The notes below the pieces were generated by a model. The model searched no databases, was not told the DNA's origin, and saw nothing but the letters and a program-made list of their open reading frames with translations. A stretch of 64,000 bases of DNA from a virus (taxonomy: Duplodnaviria > Caudoviricetes). The stretch is taken from IMG/VR virus record IMGVR_UViG_3300031993_000012, positions 96,001 through 160,000 of that record. One strand, given 5' to 3'. The position numbers and the translations under genes were made by a program. Shown here piece by piece: positions 26,411 through 54,451 of this stretch (position 1 is the first letter of the stretch; each line of letters opens with the position of its first letter).

Positions 26411-29182
26411 TTAACCGAAACTTCCTCTTTGTATTATATTTTTATCTTGTAAATTATCAACCTTTGCTGGCGTGAATGGTGTATCAATATCGAATACTCT
26501 GACATTGATATCGAATGGTGATCTGTTGAATCTCAATGCTGGTTTCATAGGCATATTGTTCATTTCAATTATAGGATAAACCAACAAAGTATCTTTATCA
26601 ATTATATATTTTTTGCCCCCTTCACCATGACCGGATGAAGTCCACATCTCAAGCTGATTAGGCTTAATTGTACTCAGTCCAGGTGAGAATTGCATTCGAT
26701 TCGCAGTTTTAGCTATGTTCTCAACAGTATATACGAGCTGTTCGCCATTGATGGTATCACCATTGTTTGTATTATTCTGTGGCTGTTGCTGTTGTTGATT
26801 ATTTTGTTGCTGCTGTTGCGGTGCTGGCTGTGGTTGACCGTTCTGAGCCTGCTGTTCAGGAATAGGATTCTGTTGCGGTGTTGGTTGTGGATTATTCTGA
26901 GTTGGTTGTGTTCCTCCAGTTGGAGCTGGTGCAGAACCATCACCTTGTCTGATTACACCTTTACTGAGAAGATCACCATGATCGTTGAATTTTGCTGGAG
27001 TTATAAGCGTTGAATTGTCTAAACCACCTTTTCCAACGACATCAAATAGCTGTGGGTTAAGTGTATTTACACGAACCTGATACGGTTCAGTTGTATATGG
27101 ATATACGTTACCTCCACTGTCAGATATAAGTGGACCATTAGTTGAAAACTCAAGTAATTGAGTACCAACATTCCATCTTCTACGTTTACCAGTCTTAGAC
27201 AAGTTATTCTTTATTAAATCAAACAACTGTGCACCTGTTATCGAACCAGCATTATTGGTTCCCACATTCTGTTGTTGAGTATTCTGTTGCGGTGTTGGTT
27301 GTGGATTATTCTGACTCTGTTGTTGCTGAGGTTGAGCGGTTTGTGTTGGATTCTGTTGAGGTTGTGTTTGCTGCGTTTGCTGCCGAGTTTGATCAGTTTG
27401 ACCACCACCATTATTAGCAGCACCATCCTTCTGAATAGAACCAGGTTGTGTGATCTTACCATTTGATACTTGTGCAGGTGTAATAACTGAAGCATCACTG
27501 ATAGTGAAACTACCACCAGAATAGTTGAATACATTATTATTGAATGCCATTGCTGCTATTTGATAAGGAGCTGTTACAAACGGATATACCAGACCAGTTG
27601 AAGGATCTGCAACATATCTACTACGATTATTACCTGGAACAAGCTGTTTATTTTGAGCATCCCAATCATAATATTGACCAGATGTGCTGAGCTTATTCTT
27701 CACCAAATCAAACAACTGCGTACCTGTTATCGGTGTAGCGGCGCCAGATGATGTTAAACCACCATTCTGATTCTGTTGAGGTTGTGCCTGTTTCGATTGC
27801 TGTTCAGGTGTGGGGTTTTGTTGTGGTGGATTTTGTGTACCATTTATATCATTCAATATATTCTGTGCTTCCGGTGATACTCTACGTCCATTCTGTTGTT
27901 GCTGTTGTTCAGGAGCGGGTTCATTAGTATTCTGACCGCCACCACCATTCTGGTTATCTCTCATCTGATCAACGAAAGAATCACTGAGCTGTTTAGCGGT
28001 ATCAGCATATCCTTTGTACCACTGCTCAACAATCTTCATTTTATCCTTACAGAACTTACGTTCATTTGCCGATGTATTACTGTCTTCGGACTTTTGTTTA
28101 TACCAATCAATTGCAGCACGTTTCTCTTTGATAACATTATTCCATATATCACTGAGATCATCATAGTTAGCTGCTTTCTTGATATCTTCAGTTGCTTTCT
28201 GGAAATATTCTGCTGGATCTGGCATTGGATCACCGATGATACCACCCTTTGGTGATTGTGATAGATTACCTTTATATGACTGAGTAACATTATTCGACGC
28301 TTGCTGTACTTTCTGTATTTGTGATTTACAATAGTCAGCTTCCTGTTTTGTCACGGGACCATTTTTCAATTTGTCTTTATAGAATCTAGTCAACTTGTCA
28401 TATGTTTCTACTGCTTTATCATATGCCTTTTGTGCGTCCTGTGGTGACTTGGCATTCTTTATAGTATCTATGATATTCTGGGTGTAACCCTTGAGATCTG
28501 AAATAGGTTCACCTTCAATACTAGAAACAGATGACGTCATTGAACTGATTAAATTACTCAAACGCTTTAAGATACCACCACCGGTTTTAAGCTTTTCTTT
28601 TTCTGCCTTAAGTTTATTCTGGTTAACTGCATCCTGTGCTTGACCAGCAACATTTTCCATTTGTTGAACATTGTTGCTGATTTGATCGATTGCTTGATTG
28701 ACTCTATTGGTGGCTTCTTGCAGATTGTCAATCGTCAATGATGAATTAGATTCAGCTGATCGTTCAGACAATTTCTGTTTAAACGCTTCTGCTTGTTCTG
28801 GAGTCATCTGAACTTTTCTGTTGACTTCCTCCATTATCTGAGCAATTCTCTCTGGTGTAAAAGTTACATTAGTCGCAGCATCGGAATATTCATTTGCAGC
28901 TTGGATGATTGTTTCTGCCGGTTTTACCATTGGGGGTGGAACCGGTGTTCGTTTTGGTACTTTATTGGTTTTACTTTTTATATTATCAACCATCTTACGA
29001 CACCATTCAATGAATCGTTGTATCAAGTTTCCATTGTTTGGTGAAGTTCGTTCAGGTGTTATTGTTGTAACACCAGCTTCCATGATTACCGTTTCAAACA
29101 TTATCTGTTTTTCATAATATTCCGATAATGCCATCAATACATTATATTCGGATTCAAGGATAATGTCTTGAATACTATTCAT
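26411..29182 (-). CDS. Gln/Asn/Pro-rich virion protein with three repeated C-terminal domains
   Basis: I(T/N)GxQL...TPA...GSI/GVI/GSF three times; N-terminal ILES/IMEA motifs. Confidence 0.6.
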   Translation of the reverse strand: MNSIQDIILESEYNVLMALSEYYEKQIMFETVIMEAGVTTITPERTSPNNGNLIQRFIEWCRKMVDNIKSKTNKVPKRTPVPPPMVKPAETIIQAANEYSDAATNVTFTPERIAQIMEEVNRKVQMTPEQAEAFKQKLSERSAESNSSLTIDNLQEATNRVNQAIDQISNNVQQMENVAGQAQDAVNQNKLKAEKEKLKTGGGILKRLSNLISSMTSSVSSIEGEPISDLKGYTQNIIDTIKNAKSPQDAQKAYDKAVETYDKLTRFYKDKLKNGPVTKQEADYCKSQIQKVQQASNNVTQSYKGNLSQSPKGGIIGDPMPDPAEYFQKATEDIKKAANYDDLSDIWNNVIKEKRAAIDWYKQKSEDSNTSANERKFCKDKMKIVEQWYKGYADTAKQLSDSFVDQMRDNQNGGGGQNTNEPAPEQQQQQNGRRVSPEAQNILNDINGTQNPPQQNPTPEQQSKQAQPQQNQNGGLTSSGAATPITGTQLFDLVKNKLSTSGQYYDWDAQNKQLVPGNNRSRYVADPSTGLVYPFVTAPYQIAAMAFNNNVFNYSGGSFTISDASVITPAQVSNGKITQPGSIQKDGAANNGGGQTDQTRQQTQQTQPQQNPTQTAQPQQQQSQNNPQPTPQQNTQQQNVGTNNAGSITGAQLFDLIKNNLSKTGKRRRWNVGTQLLEFSTNGPLISDSGGNVYPYTTEPYQVRVNTLNPQLFDVVGKGGLDNSTLITPAKFNDHGDLLSKGVIRQGDGSAPAPTGGTQPTQNNPQPTPQQNPIPEQQAQNGQPQPAPQQQQQNNQQQQQPQNNTNNGDTINGEQLVYTVENIAKTANRMQFSPGLSTIKPNQLEMWTSSGHGEGGKKYIIDKDTLLVYPIIEMNNMPMKPALRFNRSPFDINVRVFDIDTPFTPAKVDNLQDKNIIQRGSFG

Positions 29183-29195
29183 TATACTTCACTCC

Positions 29196-29669
29196 TTATA
29201 TGTATATTTTCTTTGAATAAAGATTATTCAATTGATCATATGATATACCGATGATGACCTTATGAGTCTGTGACCCAATTGCAATACGTTCCGTACCAGT
29301 AATCTGTATGAGTAACGCAGGCTGAGATTCCAGTTCATCCATCATACAATCGATTGTTATACCAGTTAATGATATACGATTACATTGTTCTTCGATTTGT
29401 GCTTTAATGGTTTTTGGTACCATATGATCATCAGCATATTTATGTAAGTACGATTCAATATCAATTCCAAGTTCCGGTATTGATGGATACTGACCGGGTT
29501 TCATGAATAACAATGCTTGAACAATATTTACACACATTTCAAACGTTGATAATACTTTTGGTTTGTATGCGGTATCATAATCAAGTGCAACATCATATCC
29601 AAGAGTCTGTACGGATGATGGATATTTCTTATTGATTTCTTGGAGCGTGATTCCTACTTCGTCTAACAT
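29196..29669 (-). CDS. baseplate wedge subunit (gp25-like)
   Basis: LLFMKPGQYPSIPELGIDIESYL resembles the gp25 L-x-T-x-x-G-E-x-P-x-x-P-x-x-G pattern. Confidence 0.6.
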   Translation of the reverse strand: MLDEVGITLQEINKKYPSSVQTLGYDVALDYDTAYKPKVLSTFEMCVNIVQALLFMKPGQYPSIPELGIDIESYLHKYADDHMVPKTIKAQIEEQCNRISLTGITIDCMMDELESQPALLIQITGTERIAIGSQTHKVIIGISYDQLNNLYSKKIYI

Positions 29670-31348: not shown

Positions 31349-31393
31349 TATGGAGGCGGGTATATCCCGCCTTCTACTTTTTATTGTTTGAAA

Positions 31394-31409
31394 AACCGAT
31401 TCGTAATCT
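31394..31409 (+). promoter_or_regulatory. putative late promoter AACC-N6-TAATCT heading the dockerin operon
   Basis: recurrent motif just upstream of AAGGAGG. Confidence 0.6.
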
Positions 31410-31431
31410 TATATTTAAAGGAGGTTACACA

Positions 31432-32622
31432 ATGGATTTCATTGATGAAAGTTATTTCGGTATAGATGAAGCAATGTCATTCATTCAAGAATCAAATGAT
31501 TCTACAATGAGATTACGTGCAGAAATCATTGAACCGATTATGAAAACATTGGATACCAAAAAAGGTTCTGATGAATATTTGAAATTCGGTACTGAATTCA
31601 TTGAAGCAAATGCGGATATGTTAGCACGTGAATTTCCAACAAAACGTGTTTCATTCCCAAAGAAATACGTTGATAATATTCTTGGTGTATTCGGATTTGA
31701 ATTGGAGTCGTTTAAGAAAACAATCAAATCTTTATGTGAAGATATTAATGGTAGTGATTTCAAAACAATCATTGCAACACCAACGAATATTATTCACGCA
31801 ATCGTTTTGTTTTATTCCGACATGACATTCAATCGTTATGTTCGTGATTCTGCACGTCAACAATTGGCATTAACCGTATATCATGTTATGTTCAATAAAT
31901 TTTATCATGGATTGCCTGATGAAAAAGTAATGGCTTACACGTATATGCATCTTAATAGAAACTGGGATATTGTTAAAGCCGAAGATATGATGACATGGAT
32001 TTCTGATAAAGTTGATTCTGCATACGCGTTTTATAAAACACAACTTACCATCAATACAACGATGAAAACAATCGTTATGTTTTTAAATCGTGTACGTACT
32101 CAGATACGTCAAGCAATGCAACAATTGGCAAATGTTTATTACAAGAATCAAACCGAAGGAAATCGTGTAAACGAAGATGCTGAAACTGGTCAACATGAAT
32201 ATATCGTAACTGATGATACTTCGCAAATACGTAATAAATTGATGCAATTGATGAAACGTGGTGACTCTTTGTATACAACCGAGAGTAATTTGTATACCGG
32301 GGTGGCGAAATTGAAAAACGTTTCTTCAAAAGCATTATACGAATTGGCACAGAAAGTTTCTCATCGTGATATTGGTGAATTGATTGATTTGATATTCTAT
32401 GTATTCATTGTAAAGGAAGGACATAAAATTGAAGAAATAAATTCGTCTGTATATATCGGTGAGATTACCAATTTACCAACGAAGGTTGATCGTTGTATTC
32501 CCGGTAAACCAATCGTTGCTCCATACGTAAAAAAGTATGGTGTTAAAAAAGAATTGATTGTCGCATACATATGTTTGATTGCAACATGGATAATGATGCG
32601 AATCAATGATGTTACTAAATAA
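31432..32622 (+). CDS. putative virion protein
   Basis: AAGGAGG RBS; N-terminal IDES/IDEA/IQES motifs. Confidence 0.6.
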   Translation: MDFIDESYFGIDEAMSFIQESNDSTMRLRAEIIEPIMKTLDTKKGSDEYLKFGTEFIEANADMLAREFPTKRVSFPKKYVDNILGVFGFELESFKKTIKSLCEDINGSDFKTIIATPTNIIHAIVLFYSDMTFNRYVRDSARQQLALTVYHVMFNKFYHGLPDEKVMAYTYMHLNRNWDIVKAEDMMTWISDKVDSAYAFYKTQLTINTTMKTIVMFLNRVRTQIRQAMQQLANVYYKNQTEGNRVNEDAETGQHEYIVTDDTSQIRNKLMQLMKRGDSLYTTESNLYTGVAKLKNVSSKALYELAQKVSHRDIGELIDLIFYVFIVKEGHKIEEINSSVYIGEITNLPTKVDRCIPGKPIVAPYVKKYGVKKELIVAYICLIATWIMMRINDVTK

Positions 32623-32636
32623 AAGGAGGTCTTATT

Positions 32637-34421
32637 ATGCCAGACAATCCAAGAATGCTTGGAGACTTATTCCCTGCAACCGGTGATGGTGAAGGTCGTG
32701 GTGTCATTGATGCTAATGATCTTAATGTGTATGATTATGCATTGGCAAATAATTGTGCACGTACTTTCATTGATTATCAGGAAGGACAAAAAGTTCCAAT
32801 CGATGTAAAGAATGGCGGTATCATTCCCGAGCAAGCTGCTGTTGCATCATTACATCAGAATGGTTTTGTTTCCGGTGTTGATCGTTATCTGTTAAAGAAA
32901 TATATTGATAAACAGGATAAACCCACTGGATACAATGTACAAACATTTATCGCAGAATTAGATGCTCAAGAAATCATTCCACCTGTTGATCCTGAAGTTA
33001 AAACATTGGATGAATACCGTGATGATGTTACTGATCATATTCTCGATCTTAAAGTATATCAGGCTGATGTTATGCTTACATTACAAACCATTTCTGCTAA
33101 GAGTCTCAATGATATGTGGGAGAAATCACAACGTCTTTGGGGTGAAGCATATAGAATGGATTATGATACAATCGCTCAGCTCGATGCTGATATGAATGCT
33201 GGTATTGACGCTACATATGAGCATGCCGATGACAGTGGATGGAAAGCTGGTCAACCGGATATTCTTTCCAGTATCAAAACAATCATTGGTACACCGGAAG
33301 ATGGTCTTAATAAAGCACAATGTGAAGAAATCCGTGATAAGTATTGGACTCCAACTGCGATAACATTCTCAGATCCACCAACACAAGAAGAGCGTGACAA
33401 GTTGGTTAAACGTTTGATCAGTATACCAGTATCAGAAGGTGTTGACTTTTATGATACATATAAGAATGCCGAACACAGTGGCGGTGGTGGCGATGATCCT
33501 GGTGAGTCACTCGTACCTGCTGATCCCGAAACTGCACCTGCAGCTTCTGGTGATCTCGCAACGTTCATTTCCAACTGTTCATCTACATATCAAACCACAT
33601 TCAACAATACTATCACATCATCACACCCGAATCAGATTATCACACTCAAAGGCAATGGTGGCTCAGATGCAATTCTTAACTGCTATGAAGTCAGTGGTGG
33701 CACATGGACTGCTGTATCTGGATTAACGAATGTTGCAGCAAAGGTTGGTGAAGCTGGAATTAAACCAGTCAGTGAAGTTCGTGAAAATCATTACAACACA
33801 AGCAGAACTCCCGCCGGAGCATGGCGACTTGGTAACTGGTCTACATGCGCTGATGATATTGGTGCTTTCGGTAAAGAAACACGTACTGGTTTGAAAATCA
33901 ATTATAAGAAACTCGAAGCAACTATGCATTGGATTGACGCAGGTAATTCACCACAGCAACAAGTTGAATCATATCCATCATGGTATAATACATTCTTCGA
34001 TACTGCTCAAAATCCATTCCATCTTATACAATGGAAACGTGCTGACTGGGCTACCAGTGTTTTCTATAAAAGTGATAAAACCACAACTATATCTGGTGCG
34101 GATACAGCATTCGATTATGGTAAATATTATGCAAATTTCAGTGGTGTTTCTACCAATGCTACCGAACGTTTGTATGATTATGTGGATACATCATATAGAA
34201 ATGCAATCGTTATTCGTTTTAATATGCCACCACATGTACAGAAACCAATTACACCAGATGAAGGAGCTGGTGCTGGTTCTGCATACTTCCTCCATAGTTC
34301 GAACAACGATTCTACACCTGCTGCAACCGGAGGATGTGTATCTGTACACAATGACAAAATGATTGCAATATTGAACTGGATCGATCGTACGAAGAGTCCA
34401 TTCATATTCATCGGCTTATAA
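32637..34421 (+). CDS. divergent dockerin fused to a C-terminal L,D-transpeptidase (YkuD-like) domain
   Basis: LGDL...GVIDANDLNVYDYAL and ASLHQNGFVSGVDRYLLKKYI (duplicated F-hand); GSAYFLH-x10-TGGCVSV catalytic motif; TPAGAW. Confidence 0.7.
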   Translation: MPDNPRMLGDLFPATGDGEGRGVIDANDLNVYDYALANNCARTFIDYQEGQKVPIDVKNGGIIPEQAAVASLHQNGFVSGVDRYLLKKYIDKQDKPTGYNVQTFIAELDAQEIIPPVDPEVKTLDEYRDDVTDHILDLKVYQADVMLTLQTISAKSLNDMWEKSQRLWGEAYRMDYDTIAQLDADMNAGIDATYEHADDSGWKAGQPDILSSIKTIIGTPEDGLNKAQCEEIRDKYWTPTAITFSDPPTQEERDKLVKRLISIPVSEGVDFYDTYKNAEHSGGGGDDPGESLVPADPETAPAASGDLATFISNCSSTYQTTFNNTITSSHPNQIITLKGNGGSDAILNCYEVSGGTWTAVSGLTNVAAKVGEAGIKPVSEVRENHYNTSRTPAGAWRLGNWSTCADDIGAFGKETRTGLKINYKKLEATMHWIDAGNSPQQQVESYPSWYNTFFDTAQNPFHLIQWKRADWATSVFYKSDKTTTISGADTAFDYGKYYANFSGVSTNATERLYDYVDTSYRNAIVIRFNMPPHVQKPITPDEGAGAGSAYFLHSSNNDSTPAATGGCVSVHNDKMIAILNWIDRTKSPFIFIGL

Positions 34422-34437
34422 TTAGGAGGTGATTTAT

Positions 34438-34878
34438 ATGCCGAGACTGTTAGGAGATTTCAACAATGACGGTATGGTTGACAGTAGAGATGGTACAGAT
34501 ATACTAACATATCTCAGCCAGGTTAGCATGTGTCGTGAGGCAGATCCATCCAGAACCGAAGAGGATATTGAAGCTGGTGATGTTATGCGTAACAGCGAAC
34601 TTTCTAACCAAGATAGATATGCGATATCAAAAGCATATGCAATCATGAGTACATACAACCGTGTATATCCTAAAACTCAACCTGCAAACTGGACTGATAC
34701 TGGTGCAGATGGATATAAGAAATATTGGTATGTTAATGAACAAGGTGAAGAAGTTTCATTGGCAGACGAACCATCTGCTCCAACATTTGAATCAAAAAAA
34801 TACTTTTACAAGATAACTGGAGTTGGTGATTTACTTGGTGATGATCCAGTAGCCGCTTTAGTTACTCATTTGCCGTAA
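34438..34878 (+). CDS. dockerin-domain protein with C-terminal aromatic PANW...APTF module
   Basis: GDFNNDGMVDSRDGTDILTYL...AGDVMRNSELSNQDRYAISKAYAIMST; AGGAGGTG RBS. Confidence 0.75.
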   Translation: MPRLLGDFNNDGMVDSRDGTDILTYLSQVSMCREADPSRTEEDIEAGDVMRNSELSNQDRYAISKAYAIMSTYNRVYPKTQPANWTDTGADGYKKYWYVNEQGEEVSLADEPSAPTFESKKYFYKITGVGDLLGDDPVAALVTHLP

Positions 34879-34964: not shown

Positions 34965-34985
34965 ACCCGGGGTTAATCCCCGGGT
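34965..34985. terminator. GC hairpin ACCCGGGG-TTAAT-CCCCGGGT
   Basis: perfect IR after operon. Confidence 0.7.
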
Positions 34986-35074
34986 ATTATATTTTTTTGA
35001 TTTGTATTTATATCATTATCGTGTACAAGAGAACTCATTTGTACAAAAATTTATTTCAATAGGAGGTTACGTTT

Positions 35075-46318: not shown

Positions 46319-48274
46319 TTATATTTTTACAATTTCTTCGAGTGGTGTTTCACGCGTTTTCCGATTATTCAAAGTTGAACATAATCCTTTCTTAACAGAA
46401 TTGGATATGTCTTGGAATAATAATCCTGATAAAAAGTTTGATGTTTGTACAAGTGAACGGAAATTATCTTTTTTGTACGATAATGGATCTACTTGGGGAT
46501 TTTTACCGTATATCTTTGCGAATGTATCGTTGTCTTCCGTACGGCATGTACGACGTGTCAACATCTCATATATAATAGATGGTGAACTCAAATCAATGTT
46601 ATTCATTGATAAACATGTGAACATCATCTGTACTATGAGCGGATATGGTATTTGTGCAATCTTAGAATACAGGAATATTTGATTGATAAAGTATTCTACA
46701 TTTACAACATTCTGACGAATTGACAAACGCGTTATTGCAGAATTCGGTTCGTATGTAATTATGATATTATCAGGATCTTCTTGTGGCTCAGCATACAAAT
46801 TAAACGACATTAATGCAGGAATTGTCAATAATGTAGATGCTGTTGGTTTATCACTCTTATCATAGAATTGTACGGGTACAATGCCGAGACATGCAATGTA
46901 CGTAGTTTCACGTTCGAATCCTACGAGATCGACGTCATCACCCTCTGATTCATCTTTGATACGTGGAATGAATATTCTCATTTTTTCTTTATTGAATAAA
47001 TATCCATCTTTGATAAATAACTTATCAGCCTGAGATAGTACTGTTTGTTCAACTTTCATTGTACCTGCAGATTGTGCAAGATTATGTTTTGATTTCAGTT
47101 TAAGGTTAAGAATTTTATCGGTGAATTGCGTACATAATAAACCAACATGTGTTATATTTCCAAGATTATAAAATAATGGTCCTGCACATTTCGCACATAT
47201 ACGATCGTGTGTACAACAAACCGGTGAACACAATCTGACCGTTTTACCCATATAAGAATTAATGTTCTTTGGTGTAAGAGTTACTATTTTTGAACCTTCC
47301 ATTATATTACGATTATAAACATATTTCGCTGTAGATTTATCAATCAATAATGGGATCGTGGCTTTGGTTCCACAATCTGATTTTGGATTCGGGTCTAATT
47401 CTTCTGACTGGAGCAATGCCATCATTTGTTTTGACATATATCCAGCATCAGCAGTACCAACTGCAGAAGGATATGCACCAGCAACAACTGAATTGGCAAA
47501 TGCAGGAATATCCTTTCGATCAATGCCATCCATCATTGAAGATTCAACAACATCATATTTTTGCGTAATATCATTGAATACTGCACCACGCATAACATTG
47601 ATTGTTTTGTAATTATTGTCCAAATTATAAACACCGGAATTGAATAAATCATTTGATTCACCAGCGTTTTTCAAATTTGTTTTAACCATTCCAATTAATT
47701 CTTTTTCAATTGAATTGGTTGCAAGAATCTGTTTAACCGGGTCATTTGAATTGACATCATTTGAAAGTTGTTTAAATAATTCCACTTTACGTTTATTTAC
47801 GTTTTCCATTGGCATCAATAATGATGATGAAACCGCAGTTCCGATATAACAACAAATCCATGCTGCTAAATGATCACGGGTATCAATAACATTTGCTTGG
47901 TCTTCAGTTGTAATCTGATCTGCAATAACTAATTGCGCCAGCATGGTTTCAAATGATTCCATTCCTTTATTGCTTAATGGAATATTCCAATATTTTGTTA
48001 CTTGGATTATATGTGTTTTCTCCAATACAACTCGATTGAATAACAACATTCCAAGTGATGTTTCTGTTGGTCCAACAACATACGGATACTCTTCCGGTGT
48101 TAACATTATATGTGCATTACAATCAAAATTCGCATGTTTAAAAGTACCAGTTTCACGATCATGATATGATGCAAACATGTCTTCGATAAATGCTTTGTTG
48201 ATTTGTTCAATTGGGGTTGAAAGAAGTTTTTGTTTACCCAATTTAGTATTCTGGGCATCAGCCATTAGTATCAT
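46319..48274 (-). CDS. phage RNA polymerase beta' subunit, C-terminal fragment
   Basis: bridge-helix-like GTADAGY, DCGT, SPVCC...ICAKCAG zinc site, trigger-loop-like LNLKLKSKH. Confidence 0.85.
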   Translation of the reverse strand: MILMADAQNTKLGKQKLLSTPIEQINKAFIEDMFASYHDRETGTFKHANFDCNAHIMLTPEEYPYVVGPTETSLGMLLFNRVVLEKTHIIQVTKYWNIPLSNKGMESFETMLAQLVIADQITTEDQANVIDTRDHLAAWICCYIGTAVSSSLLMPMENVNKRKVELFKQLSNDVNSNDPVKQILATNSIEKELIGMVKTNLKNAGESNDLFNSGVYNLDNNYKTINVMRGAVFNDITQKYDVVESSMMDGIDRKDIPAFANSVVAGAYPSAVGTADAGYMSKQMMALLQSEELDPNPKSDCGTKATIPLLIDKSTAKYVYNRNIMEGSKIVTLTPKNINSYMGKTVRLCSPVCCTHDRICAKCAGPLFYNLGNITHVGLLCTQFTDKILNLKLKSKHNLAQSAGTMKVEQTVLSQADKLFIKDGYLFNKEKMRIFIPRIKDESEGDDVDLVGFERETTYIACLGIVPVQFYDKSDKPTASTLLTIPALMSFNLYAEPQEDPDNIIITYEPNSAITRLSIRQNVVNVEYFINQIFLYSKIAQIPYPLIVQMMFTCLSMNNIDLSSPSIIYEMLTRRTCRTEDNDTFAKIYGKNPQVDPLSYKKDNFRSLVQTSNFLSGLLFQDISNSVKKGLCSTLNNRKTRETPLEEIVKI

Positions 48275-53869: not shown

Positions 53870-54451
53870 TTATTCTCCATCTGTTGGTTCAAATAATTTT
53901 ACGTCATATTCTTTGTCGTTGATTACGATACGACCGTAACCAATTGCTGCAGATGAATCACTTTCGGGATCATCTGGTTCGGGTGTTGATGGTGTTTCAG
54001 GTTCTGGTGGATTGGTTGGTTTATTACCGGGACGGTATCCATCATCATATACTCCAAGTTCATTTGGAATACCACTGATTTCACATACATTGAGGAAACA
54101 TCCTGCAGAGAAGTTTGGTCTGATACAGTAGTGACAATGTGAACCAAAGCTGTATCCAGTATCACCTTCGATACCAATTACATCTGTACAGTTTACTTGT
54201 GCACCAGTGTATGTTTTGATTTCTGACAGATGTCCATAATAATAGTAACGATTATCAGTACCAAGGATACATACGAATTGACCAAAACCTTGTCTGTGAT
54301 TGGAATCATTCTCCCATCCAGCATAGATAACTCGACCGCTGATAGTAGCATGAATCTCTTTAGAATCAATACCAACCAGATCGAGTCCATCATGGGCAGA
54401 ACCTTTGAATTGTTGAGTAACACGGAATTGACCGCAATACGGTGAGTTCAT
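53870..54451 (-). CDS. M23 peptidase (probable endolysin)
   Basis: HDGLD, YGHLS, GDTG.S.GSHCHY; Pro-rich linker. Confidence 0.85.
   Translation of the reverse strand: MNSPYCGQFRVTQQFKGSAHDGLDLVGIDSKEIHATISGRVIYAGWENDSNHRQGFGQFVCILGTDNRYYYYGHLSEIKTYTGAQVNCTDVIGIEGDTGYSFGSHCHYCIRPNFSAGCFLNVCEISGIPNELGVYDDGYRPGNKPTNPPEPETPSTPEPDDPESDSSAAIGYGRIVINDKEYDVKLFEPTDGE

Follow-up and report, generated by a model that had tools for sequence, protein, structure and literature searches.

Paired dockerin-bearing proteins, one with a predicted YkuD-fold hydrolase domain, encoded by an operon of a rumen jumbo phage

The bacteria that do most of the fibre degradation in the rumen assemble their cellulosomes by the pairing of cohesins with dockerins. 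As laid down in the Pfam family Dockerin_1 (PF00404), the dockerin module comprises two tandem segments of about 22 residues, each formed by an EF-hand-like calcium loop, with ligands at positions 1, 3, 5, 9 and 12, followed by a helix. The nearest solved relative of the modules described here is the ScaH dockerin of Ruminococcus flavefaciens (Protein Data Bank (PDB) entry 8AJY), a group-4 dockerin bound to the cell-wall-anchored ScaE cohesin (PMC12270676). On the side of the enzyme, the closest described proteins are Csd6 of Helicobacter pylori, Pgp2 of Campylobacter jejuni and Bd1075 of Bdellovibrio, enzymes that diderm bacteria export to the periplasm, where they act on cell shape, and that have NTF2-like partner domains. 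In phages YkuD is counted as a rare lytic catalytic domain in the text of the PhaLP paper (10 are listed), where dockerins are not mentioned. Dockerin domains have been reported on a putative virus contig of anaerobic methanotrophic archaea (ANME) in a 2026 study (PMC13452462), and no paper showing the binding of a phage dockerin to a host cohesin was found in the literature.

Here we describe two adjacent genes, B and C, located in a stretch of 64,000 nucleotides (hereafter the window) corresponding to bases 96001-160000 of a 182-kb IMG/VR virus record that is rated 68% complete (IMGVR_UViG_3300031993_000012). The source is a jumbo phage whose multisubunit RNA polymerase is encoded by split genes (phrog_3233 and phrog_2962), and the same proteins are also carried by a 254-kb contig represented in the protein database. 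Gene B (32637-34421, plus strand, 594 residues, protein P0001) and gene C (34438-34878, plus strand, 146 residues) each begin with a dockerin module, and B ends in a predicted YkuD-fold hydrolase domain. No match to the region, to B or to C was obtained by megablast and tblastn among 50,697 cultured-phage records.

Dockerin modules of B and C

The two N-termini were recognized as dockerins by sequence profiles with different ease. Against Dockerin_1, for which the gathering cut-off is 22.9 bits, C scored 22.3 bits when read from a GTG start and 23.4 bits in a six-frame scan, thus straddling the cut-off according to the start chosen, and all of its eight relatives matched the family (8/8, best E 1.7e-7). 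The start of C is most likely the ATG at 34438, which is preceded by an AGGAGG ribosome-binding site; the in-frame alternative is the GTG at 34429, and protein P0002 is the frame of C taken from this GTG nine bases upstream, with three extra N-terminal residues. B itself scored 12.6 bits (E 0.026), and five of its 13 relatives matched Dockerin_1 at E<=1 (best E 1.8e-4). In the six frames of the whole 182-kb record B and C were the only matches at E<=1, so chance is not a plausible explanation. Moreover, the significant matches of the C-family profile in the PDB were almost exclusively dockerins, the best of them being 8AJY (E 7e-6), with an alignment spanning both repeats and the YAxxST ending. 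The N-terminal profiles of B and C also matched each other in hhalign (87.5% probability, E 3.6e-6).

Structural comparison led to the same assignment. The AlphaFold2 (AF2) model of B, built on 104 sequences, had a mean predicted local distance difference test score (pLDDT) of 91, and of 74-95 in the dockerin region. With the whole model no match at E<=0.001 was returned by Foldseek from the PDB and BFVD, and the domains were resolved by VIA-align instead. Residues 6-111 superposed on chain D of 8AJY with a Z of 10.0 and a root-mean-square deviation of 2.8 A over 82 of 84 residues, at about 16% identity in the structural alignment, and the dockerins of C. thermocellum and A. cellulolyticus gave Z values of 7-8.6. 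For C the AF2 model, which could be built on an eight-sequence alignment, was too poor for use (pLDDT 44). The Atlas model of C matched dockerin clusters with TM scores of 0.75-0.81, and the nearest clusters were all Dockerin_1 and mostly from Bacillota. In one Atlas cluster, labelled 'putative dockerin domain-containing proteins', half of the members are viral, which means that such genes already lie in the databases without a function. We regard the fold assignments of both proteins as firm.

The module of B (residues 1-111; 32637..32969, plus strand) is a divergent dockerin in which a beta-hairpin is inserted in the inter-repeat linker and a helix is added at the C-terminal end, and that of C (residues 1-79; 34438..34674, plus strand) is a Ruminococcus-type dockerin ending in YAxxST. 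Both retain the layout of two repeats. In the first calcium loop of C the five ligands are all canonical, in the pattern D-x-N-x-D-G-x-x-D-x-x-D, and in its second loop positions 1, 5, 9 and 12 are kept and position 3 is occupied by Met or Leu. In B the first loop is variable or carries an insert, and the second is conserved but non-canonical (S-x-H-x-N-G-x-x-S-x-x-D). The phage modules share with the ScaH dockerin two loop-and-helix repeats with a long linker between them, the YAxxST ending and the additional helix at the C-terminus. They differ from it in their position at the extreme N-terminus of proteins without a signal peptide, in the degeneration of the second calcium loops and, in B, in the beta-hairpin insert. 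The Sec signal peptide of cellulosomal components is absent from B and C, where the dockerin begins at about residue 5, and neither protein has a signal peptide or a transmembrane segment by hydropathy (maximum Kyte-Doolittle 19-residue mean <1.0).

Most of what a first-pass annotation had read from the letters of this DNA agrees with these results. Both open reading frames lie where it had placed them, at 32637 and 34438, one after the other; their N-termini are dockerin-like by Pfam, by profile comparison and by the AF2 model of B, with a ruminococcal protein (8AJY) as the nearest solved relative; GDFNNDGMVDSRD and YAIMST are found in C; the version in B is the more divergent; and neither protein has a signal peptide. 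Its reading of a duplicated calcium-binding hand in each protein has to be narrowed: the first loop of C is the only canonical one, Met or Leu stands at position 3 of the second, and both loops of B are non-canonical. The Dockerin_1 profile that it had suggested as a check supports C, at the cut-off and through its relatives, but not the sequence of B itself, for which the match is found in some of the relatives.

The remainder of C (residues 80-146; 34675..34878, plus strand) is a small conserved domain with an invariant C-terminal LVTHLP, of which the last two residues recur in distant relatives ending in SDLP or AQLP; no family match was found for it. The whole of C gave one weak match in PHROGs (E 0.27) and none in NCBIfam. 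No longer proteins with the dockerin of C were found, and a scan of IMG/VR with the dockerin only returned nothing beyond the family itself.

Among bacterial proteins, a Bacillota cluster labelled VanY-Big_2 has a model that matches the phage dockerin at a TM score of 0.80 over 73 residues. It resembles B in being a peptidoglycan peptidase, and comes from the likely phylum of the host. Unlike B, it is bacterial and has the VanY fold, and Dockerin_1 is not among its listed Pfam families, so that its dockerin rests on the structure match and the labels are automatic. Going by this match, bacteria may themselves already have wall enzymes with dockerin-like modules.

The catalytic domain of B and other wall enzymes

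The C-terminal part of B (residues 302-594; 33540..34421, plus strand) is a YkuD-fold domain of the Csd6/Pgp2/Bd1075 type. It scored 24.9 bits against Pfam YkuD (PF03734; cut-off 23.4), the domain was also over the cut-off in all of its relatives (13/13), and the catalytic residues His553 and Cys567 are invariant in the family alignment and nearly invariant across the 104 sequences. Among the many YkuD-fold structures retrieved by VIA-align (Z 9-13), the three best were Csd6 (12.9), Pgp2 (12.6) and Bd1075 (11.3), whereas transpeptidases reached Z<=10.9. In the PDB the profile of the 104 sequences matched only the same three proteins (E values of 1.4e-7, 2.3e-6 and 3.5e-5), and no canonical transpeptidase was matched by it at E<=0.01. 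Csd6, Pgp2 and Bd1075 are L,D-carboxypeptidases.

The active site points in the same direction. The motif of canonical L,D-transpeptidases, such as Ldtfm, LdtMt2 and YkuD of B. subtilis, is H-x(14-17)-[S/T]-H-G-C-h-[N/R], whereas B has H553-x13-T-G-G-C567-V-S, without the His two positions before the Cys and without the Asn or Arg two positions after it. T-G-G-C-V-S follows instead the T/S-x-G-C-[VI]-[AVS] pattern of Csd6, Pgp2 and Bd1075, with which B shares the order His...T/S-x-G-C-[VI]. On account of the structural matches, the sequence matches and this motif the enzyme is read as a stem-peptide hydrolase and not as a cross-linker: by sequence and structure the C-terminus of B groups as a predicted YkuD-fold hydrolase of the L,D-carboxypeptidase type. 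Enzymes of this type cut tetrapeptide stems behind the L-centre of residue 3, at its bond to D-Ala4. B differs from the three bacterial enzymes in being a phage late protein, in the presence of a dockerin and a helical domain, and in a large insertion in the catalytic domain (approximately residues 440-500). Between dockerin and enzyme (residues 112-301; 32970..33539, plus strand) the AF2 secondary structure shows an all-helical middle domain (112-280) and a Gly/Pro-rich linker (281-301); pLDDT is above 90 here except in the linker, and the middle domain had only generic helical structural matches (Z<=6.9). No match to B was found in PHROGs and NCBIfam.

B is the sole YkuD protein in the phage record. 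The ordinary endolysin of this phage, an Amidase_2 domain with an SH3b-like tail, is encoded 81 kb upstream, outside the window (G000:C1:51117-51929; L015:1117-1926), and its nearest clusters are phage and Bacillota amidases. The presence of this separate endolysin makes B an additional wall enzyme. No small multi-transmembrane holin gene adjoins B. Like modular phage endolysins and virion lysins, B links a wall-active domain to a targeting module and has a late expression signal; unlike them, its targeting module is of a protein-protein docking kind and takes the place of a domain for binding carbohydrate or peptidoglycan. The first-pass annotation had offered the delivery of an enzyme to the cell wall as one option, and the predicted peptidoglycan-active domain of B fits it.

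A third wall-active enzyme is encoded within the window at 53870-54451 (minus strand): a stand-alone M23-type metallo-endopeptidase of 193 residues, with the same late-type promoter as the operon of B and C.

Relatives, operon and promoters

Relatives of the locus were found in cattle and buffalo rumen metagenomes (PRJEB21624, STEW19, TONG22) and in IMG/VR, a setting that supports part of the first-pass interpretation. In these relatives the order of the genes is kept: a gene of 175 residues, A, B, C, dCMP deaminase, DNA polymerase and GyrA. The operon is present at locus L014 as well, where the two proteins begin with MARALGD and MARIFGD. Within the conserved block no genes change faster than B and C. 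Across seven loci their identities were 37-75% and 38-70%, respectively, against 83-96% for A and 80-93% for GyrA. In each of the two proteins conservation is lowest in the dockerin, with 53-58% identity in B against 80-86% in its other domains, and 46-77% in C against 60-91%. A module that diverges most rapidly and nevertheless retains its fold has the look of a surface for interactions that is under diversifying pressure.

The full-length B family is small, with about five clusters among 1.84 billion representative proteins, and the next matches have in common with it the catalytic domain alone. The closest of these outside relatives, P0027 and P0028 (E 3e-11 and 7e-10), are phage-borne and without a dockerin, P0028 coming from a buffalo rumen sample. 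Their genes follow those of a T4_baseplate protein and a LysM protein and precede those of a lysozyme/CHAP protein and a wedge subunit, and one of the two has a weak, below-cut-off N-terminal match to a baseplate-spike OB domain. The YkuD subfamily is therefore located with genes for tail and baseplate, next to enzymes that degrade the wall. Moreover, there is evidence of domain shuffling within the B family itself, as P0020 is a mosaic: its dockerin and middle domain are like those of one lineage (55% and 81% identity), and its linker and catalytic domain are like those of another (35% and 41%), the catalytic domain having been swapped.

The baseplate-module proteins of this subfamily, at L016:8001-9218 (a buffalo-rumen sample) and L017:8001-9335, deserve mention in their own right, as they look like virion-associated L,D-peptidases, which to our knowledge are poorly described.

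Genes A, B and C are closely packed on the plus strand between two intrinsic terminators, each a GC-rich hairpin followed by a run of T. The first (31352..31374, plus strand) ends the upstream gene of 175 residues and forms the 5' boundary of the operon; the second (34965..34985, plus strand) closes it. An AACC-N6-TAA motif lies at 31394..31406 (plus strand), 38 nt ahead of the start of A. This motif, in the general form AAC[CT]-N6-TAA, occurs 17 times in the genome, and eight of the copies lie 36-52 nt upstream of same-strand gene starts, where 0.5 would be expected. Half of these eight genes match virion-related families, namely those of the tape measure, of virion structural proteins (two genes) and of a subunit of the virion RNA polymerase, and further ones are the M23 peptidase and the start of the A-B-C operon. 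The core of the motif upstream of A is kept in four related loci (L003, L005, L013 and L014). It closely resembles the late promoter consensus of phage AR9, AACA-N6-TA/G, which is recognised by the non-virion RNA polymerase (PMC5312081). Since the motif is common to virion genes and is like that of AR9, 'late' is a reasonable inference, and the A-B-C operon is probably expressed late, as far as can be judged from the sequence. The operon with a late promoter proposed in the first-pass annotation thereby receives indirect support. Examples of this promoter class can be seen at 31394, 48308 (minus strand) and 54487 (minus strand) of the window and upstream in L022. A sigma-70 promoter match at 31388-31415 was discarded, because its -35 element is not conserved in the relatives and such matches occur at chance rate.

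Gene A (31432..32622, plus strand, 396 residues) belongs to phrog_2921, a PHROG family of unknown function, and had no Pfam or NCBIfam match; it is co-transcribed with the dockerin pair, yet probably stands outside it. Residues 376-394 of A (window 32557-32613) form a borderline C-terminal hydrophobic segment (Kyte-Doolittle 1.59), and the product of A may be a membrane protein anchored by its tail. The ribosome-binding sites of the phage are strong AGGAGG motifs.

The operon adjoins replication genes and lies outside any tail module. A gp25-like match at 29196-29669 was far under the cut-off and was not used as a sign of a structural neighbourhood. Beside the conserved block there is a variable slot, occupied in the window by a coiled-coil-like gene of 923 residues (26411-29182, minus strand), which is missing at that position in L005 and replaced in L003 by a gene of 430 residues. 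Further promoter classes are suggested by two other motifs that recur upstream of genes: TCTACATATATATTATTC, and TTTATATCATTAT followed by a TGTACAA...TTGTACA inverted repeat, found for example at 35000-35060 before the dCMP deaminase gene. In addition, the gene at 46319-48265 (minus strand) encodes an RNA polymerase beta-like subunit (phrog_2962) whose C-terminal third also matches the virion structural family phrog_2926, a dual match that is consistent with a packaged virion RNA polymerase.

Partner, host and possible function

Docking of B and C onto host cohesins is the mechanism that best fits these observations, and we favour it tentatively, giving it somewhat less than an even chance. 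An AR9-like rumen jumbo phage would express the three-gene operon late in infection, and B and C would be made in the cytoplasm without export signals, each starting with a dockerin of the Ruminococcus group-4 kind. B consists of this dockerin, a helical domain, a flexible linker and a predicted YkuD-fold peptidoglycan hydrolase, and C of a dockerin and a small domain. The dockerins would most likely be functional only outside the cell, at millimolar Ca2+, either after lysis or on the virion. There B and C would clip onto cohesin modules exposed on the surface of a Gram-positive, cohesin-bearing host. Held next to the wall, the enzyme of B could thin or remodel it, aiding penetration or lysis from without, and C could occupy or mark the same cohesin sockets.

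The host is likely to be a Gram-positive member of the Bacillota, because of the strong Shine-Dalgarno use of the phage, its endolysin with an SH3b-like tail and the Bacillota-type neighbours of its dockerins. A possible link of the CRISPR type (clustered regularly interspaced short palindromic repeats) to another group was rejected. When 20 kb of the window were compared with 151 genomes of the family Spirochaetaceae, two 30-nt matches were obtained inside gene C; they fall in a chromosomal coding region with a ferritin-like translation and without flanking repeats, and are attributed to chance.

Several observations weigh against the docking of B and C onto host cohesins. As regards the modules themselves, the Dockerin_1 score of B is far below the cut-off and the second calcium loops of both proteins are degenerate. 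Dockerin-like modules that are not cellulosomal and have no known partner are widespread, and most cellulosomal enzymes known so far are exported by the Sec pathway and carry the dockerin at the C-terminus, whereas in B and C it is N-terminal and there is no signal. As regards the enzyme, an L,D-carboxypeptidase alone trims stems and leaves the cross-links, so the wall would be weakened only if B also acted as an endopeptidase or if 3-3 cross-links abounded in the host. As regards the partner, no cohesin was found with Pfam at E<=1 in the 182-kb phage record, which is 68% complete. The sole taxonomic link of the family consists of at least two contigs of a related phage (L008/L025/L031; G001 contigs C1 and C148; 74-77% DNA identity) that were binned in a metagenome-assembled genome (MAG) named 'uncultured Spirochaetaceae'. 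In this MAG and 60 genomes of the family no cohesin reached the Pfam cut-off, a single match lying below it (20.7 bits), and the only dockerin in these 61 genomes was the phage contig's own. The simplest explanation of the link is mis-binning driven by composition, as the G+C contents of the phage contigs and the MAG match (35.5% against 36.4%); a Spirochaetaceae host is the less likely alternative. As no cohesin was found in the phage record and the only taxonomic link leads to a family in whose 61 genomes none reached the cut-off, the first-pass proposal of the cellulosome as receptor is kept here as a hypothesis.

The dockerins could find their partner in the phage itself. They would then anchor B and C in a cohesin-like socket of the tail or baseplate, with B as a clip-on virion hydrolase for penetration. 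Tailspikes and virion lysins are usually built with an anchor at the N-terminus and the enzyme at the C-terminus, and it agrees with such a role that B and C have no signal peptide, that their promoter is of the late type common to virion genes, that P0001 is the only YkuD protein of the record and that the catalytic relatives of B lie in baseplate blocks of other rumen phages, one with the weak spike-OB match mentioned above. However, the operon is placed beside replication genes and not in a tail module, and an anchor in the particle would be expected to be conserved, whereas the dockerins diverge fastest in both proteins. The search of the record for a cohesin also speaks against a socket, with the limit that the record is incomplete and that divergent beta-sandwiches would escape. 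We consider such self-assembly unlikely. The same low likelihood is given to an explanation that needs no cohesin at all, in which the modules would be EF-hand-type Ca2+ switches or stabilisers that render the proteins inactive in the low-calcium cytoplasm, with B an accessory lysis enzyme released together with the endolysin and C an unrelated small late protein. The degenerate loops, with Met at position 3 in the second loop of C and S-x-H-x-N in B, would be accounted for in this way, as would the low Pfam score of B and the lack of a partner in the phage record and in the single MAG linked to a relative; YkuD is, moreover, already counted as a rare phage lytic domain. A simple switch would leave unexplained, however, why the two-repeat architecture, the YAxxST ending and the extra helix are kept in two proteins across phages at 37-45% identity, and the divergence of the module ahead of its cargo, with the fold retained, is more typical of a binding interface.

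A last explanation, the strongest form of the first-pass proposal, would make B, C or both receptor-binding proteins of the virion, with the host cohesins, and hence the anchor of the cellulosome, as the primary receptor for adsorption. The dockerins do look like those of group 4, whose partner is the wall-anchored ScaE cohesin, they diverge quickly, as receptor-binding parts do, and the operon carries a late-type expression signal. Against it, neither B nor C resembles a fibre or a spike or shows a sign of attachment to the virion, such proteins usually bind the receptor with their C-terminal end and the dockerin here is N-terminal, and there is no third dockerin in a fibre gene of the record. 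To a dedicated adsorption device of this kind we give little credence.

Returning to the docking of B and C onto host cohesins, its most complete form is possible but doubtful. A signal-less enzyme of the L,D-carboxypeptidase type and its small companion, released by lysis or carried on the virion, would fold in the Ca2+ outside the cell and clip onto wall-anchored cohesins of the ScaE type on cellulolytic bacteria resembling Ruminococcus. The anchor of the cellulosome would then serve as a landing site for attack on the wall, for adsorption or for masking of the receptor, and the phage dockerins would be engaged in an arms race with the cohesins of the host. B would in that case be the first phage lytic protein found with a protein-docking targeting module instead of a wall-binding domain, joined to an enzyme of the YkuD-fold L,D-carboxypeptidase type that is rare in phages, and the module could serve in the engineering of designer cellulosomes or targeted lysins. 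If phages carry plugs that match the sockets of the main rumen fibre degraders, the anchor of the cellulosome would also be a point of vulnerability, and pressure from phages could help to explain the diversity of cohesin-dockerin specificities among ruminococci.

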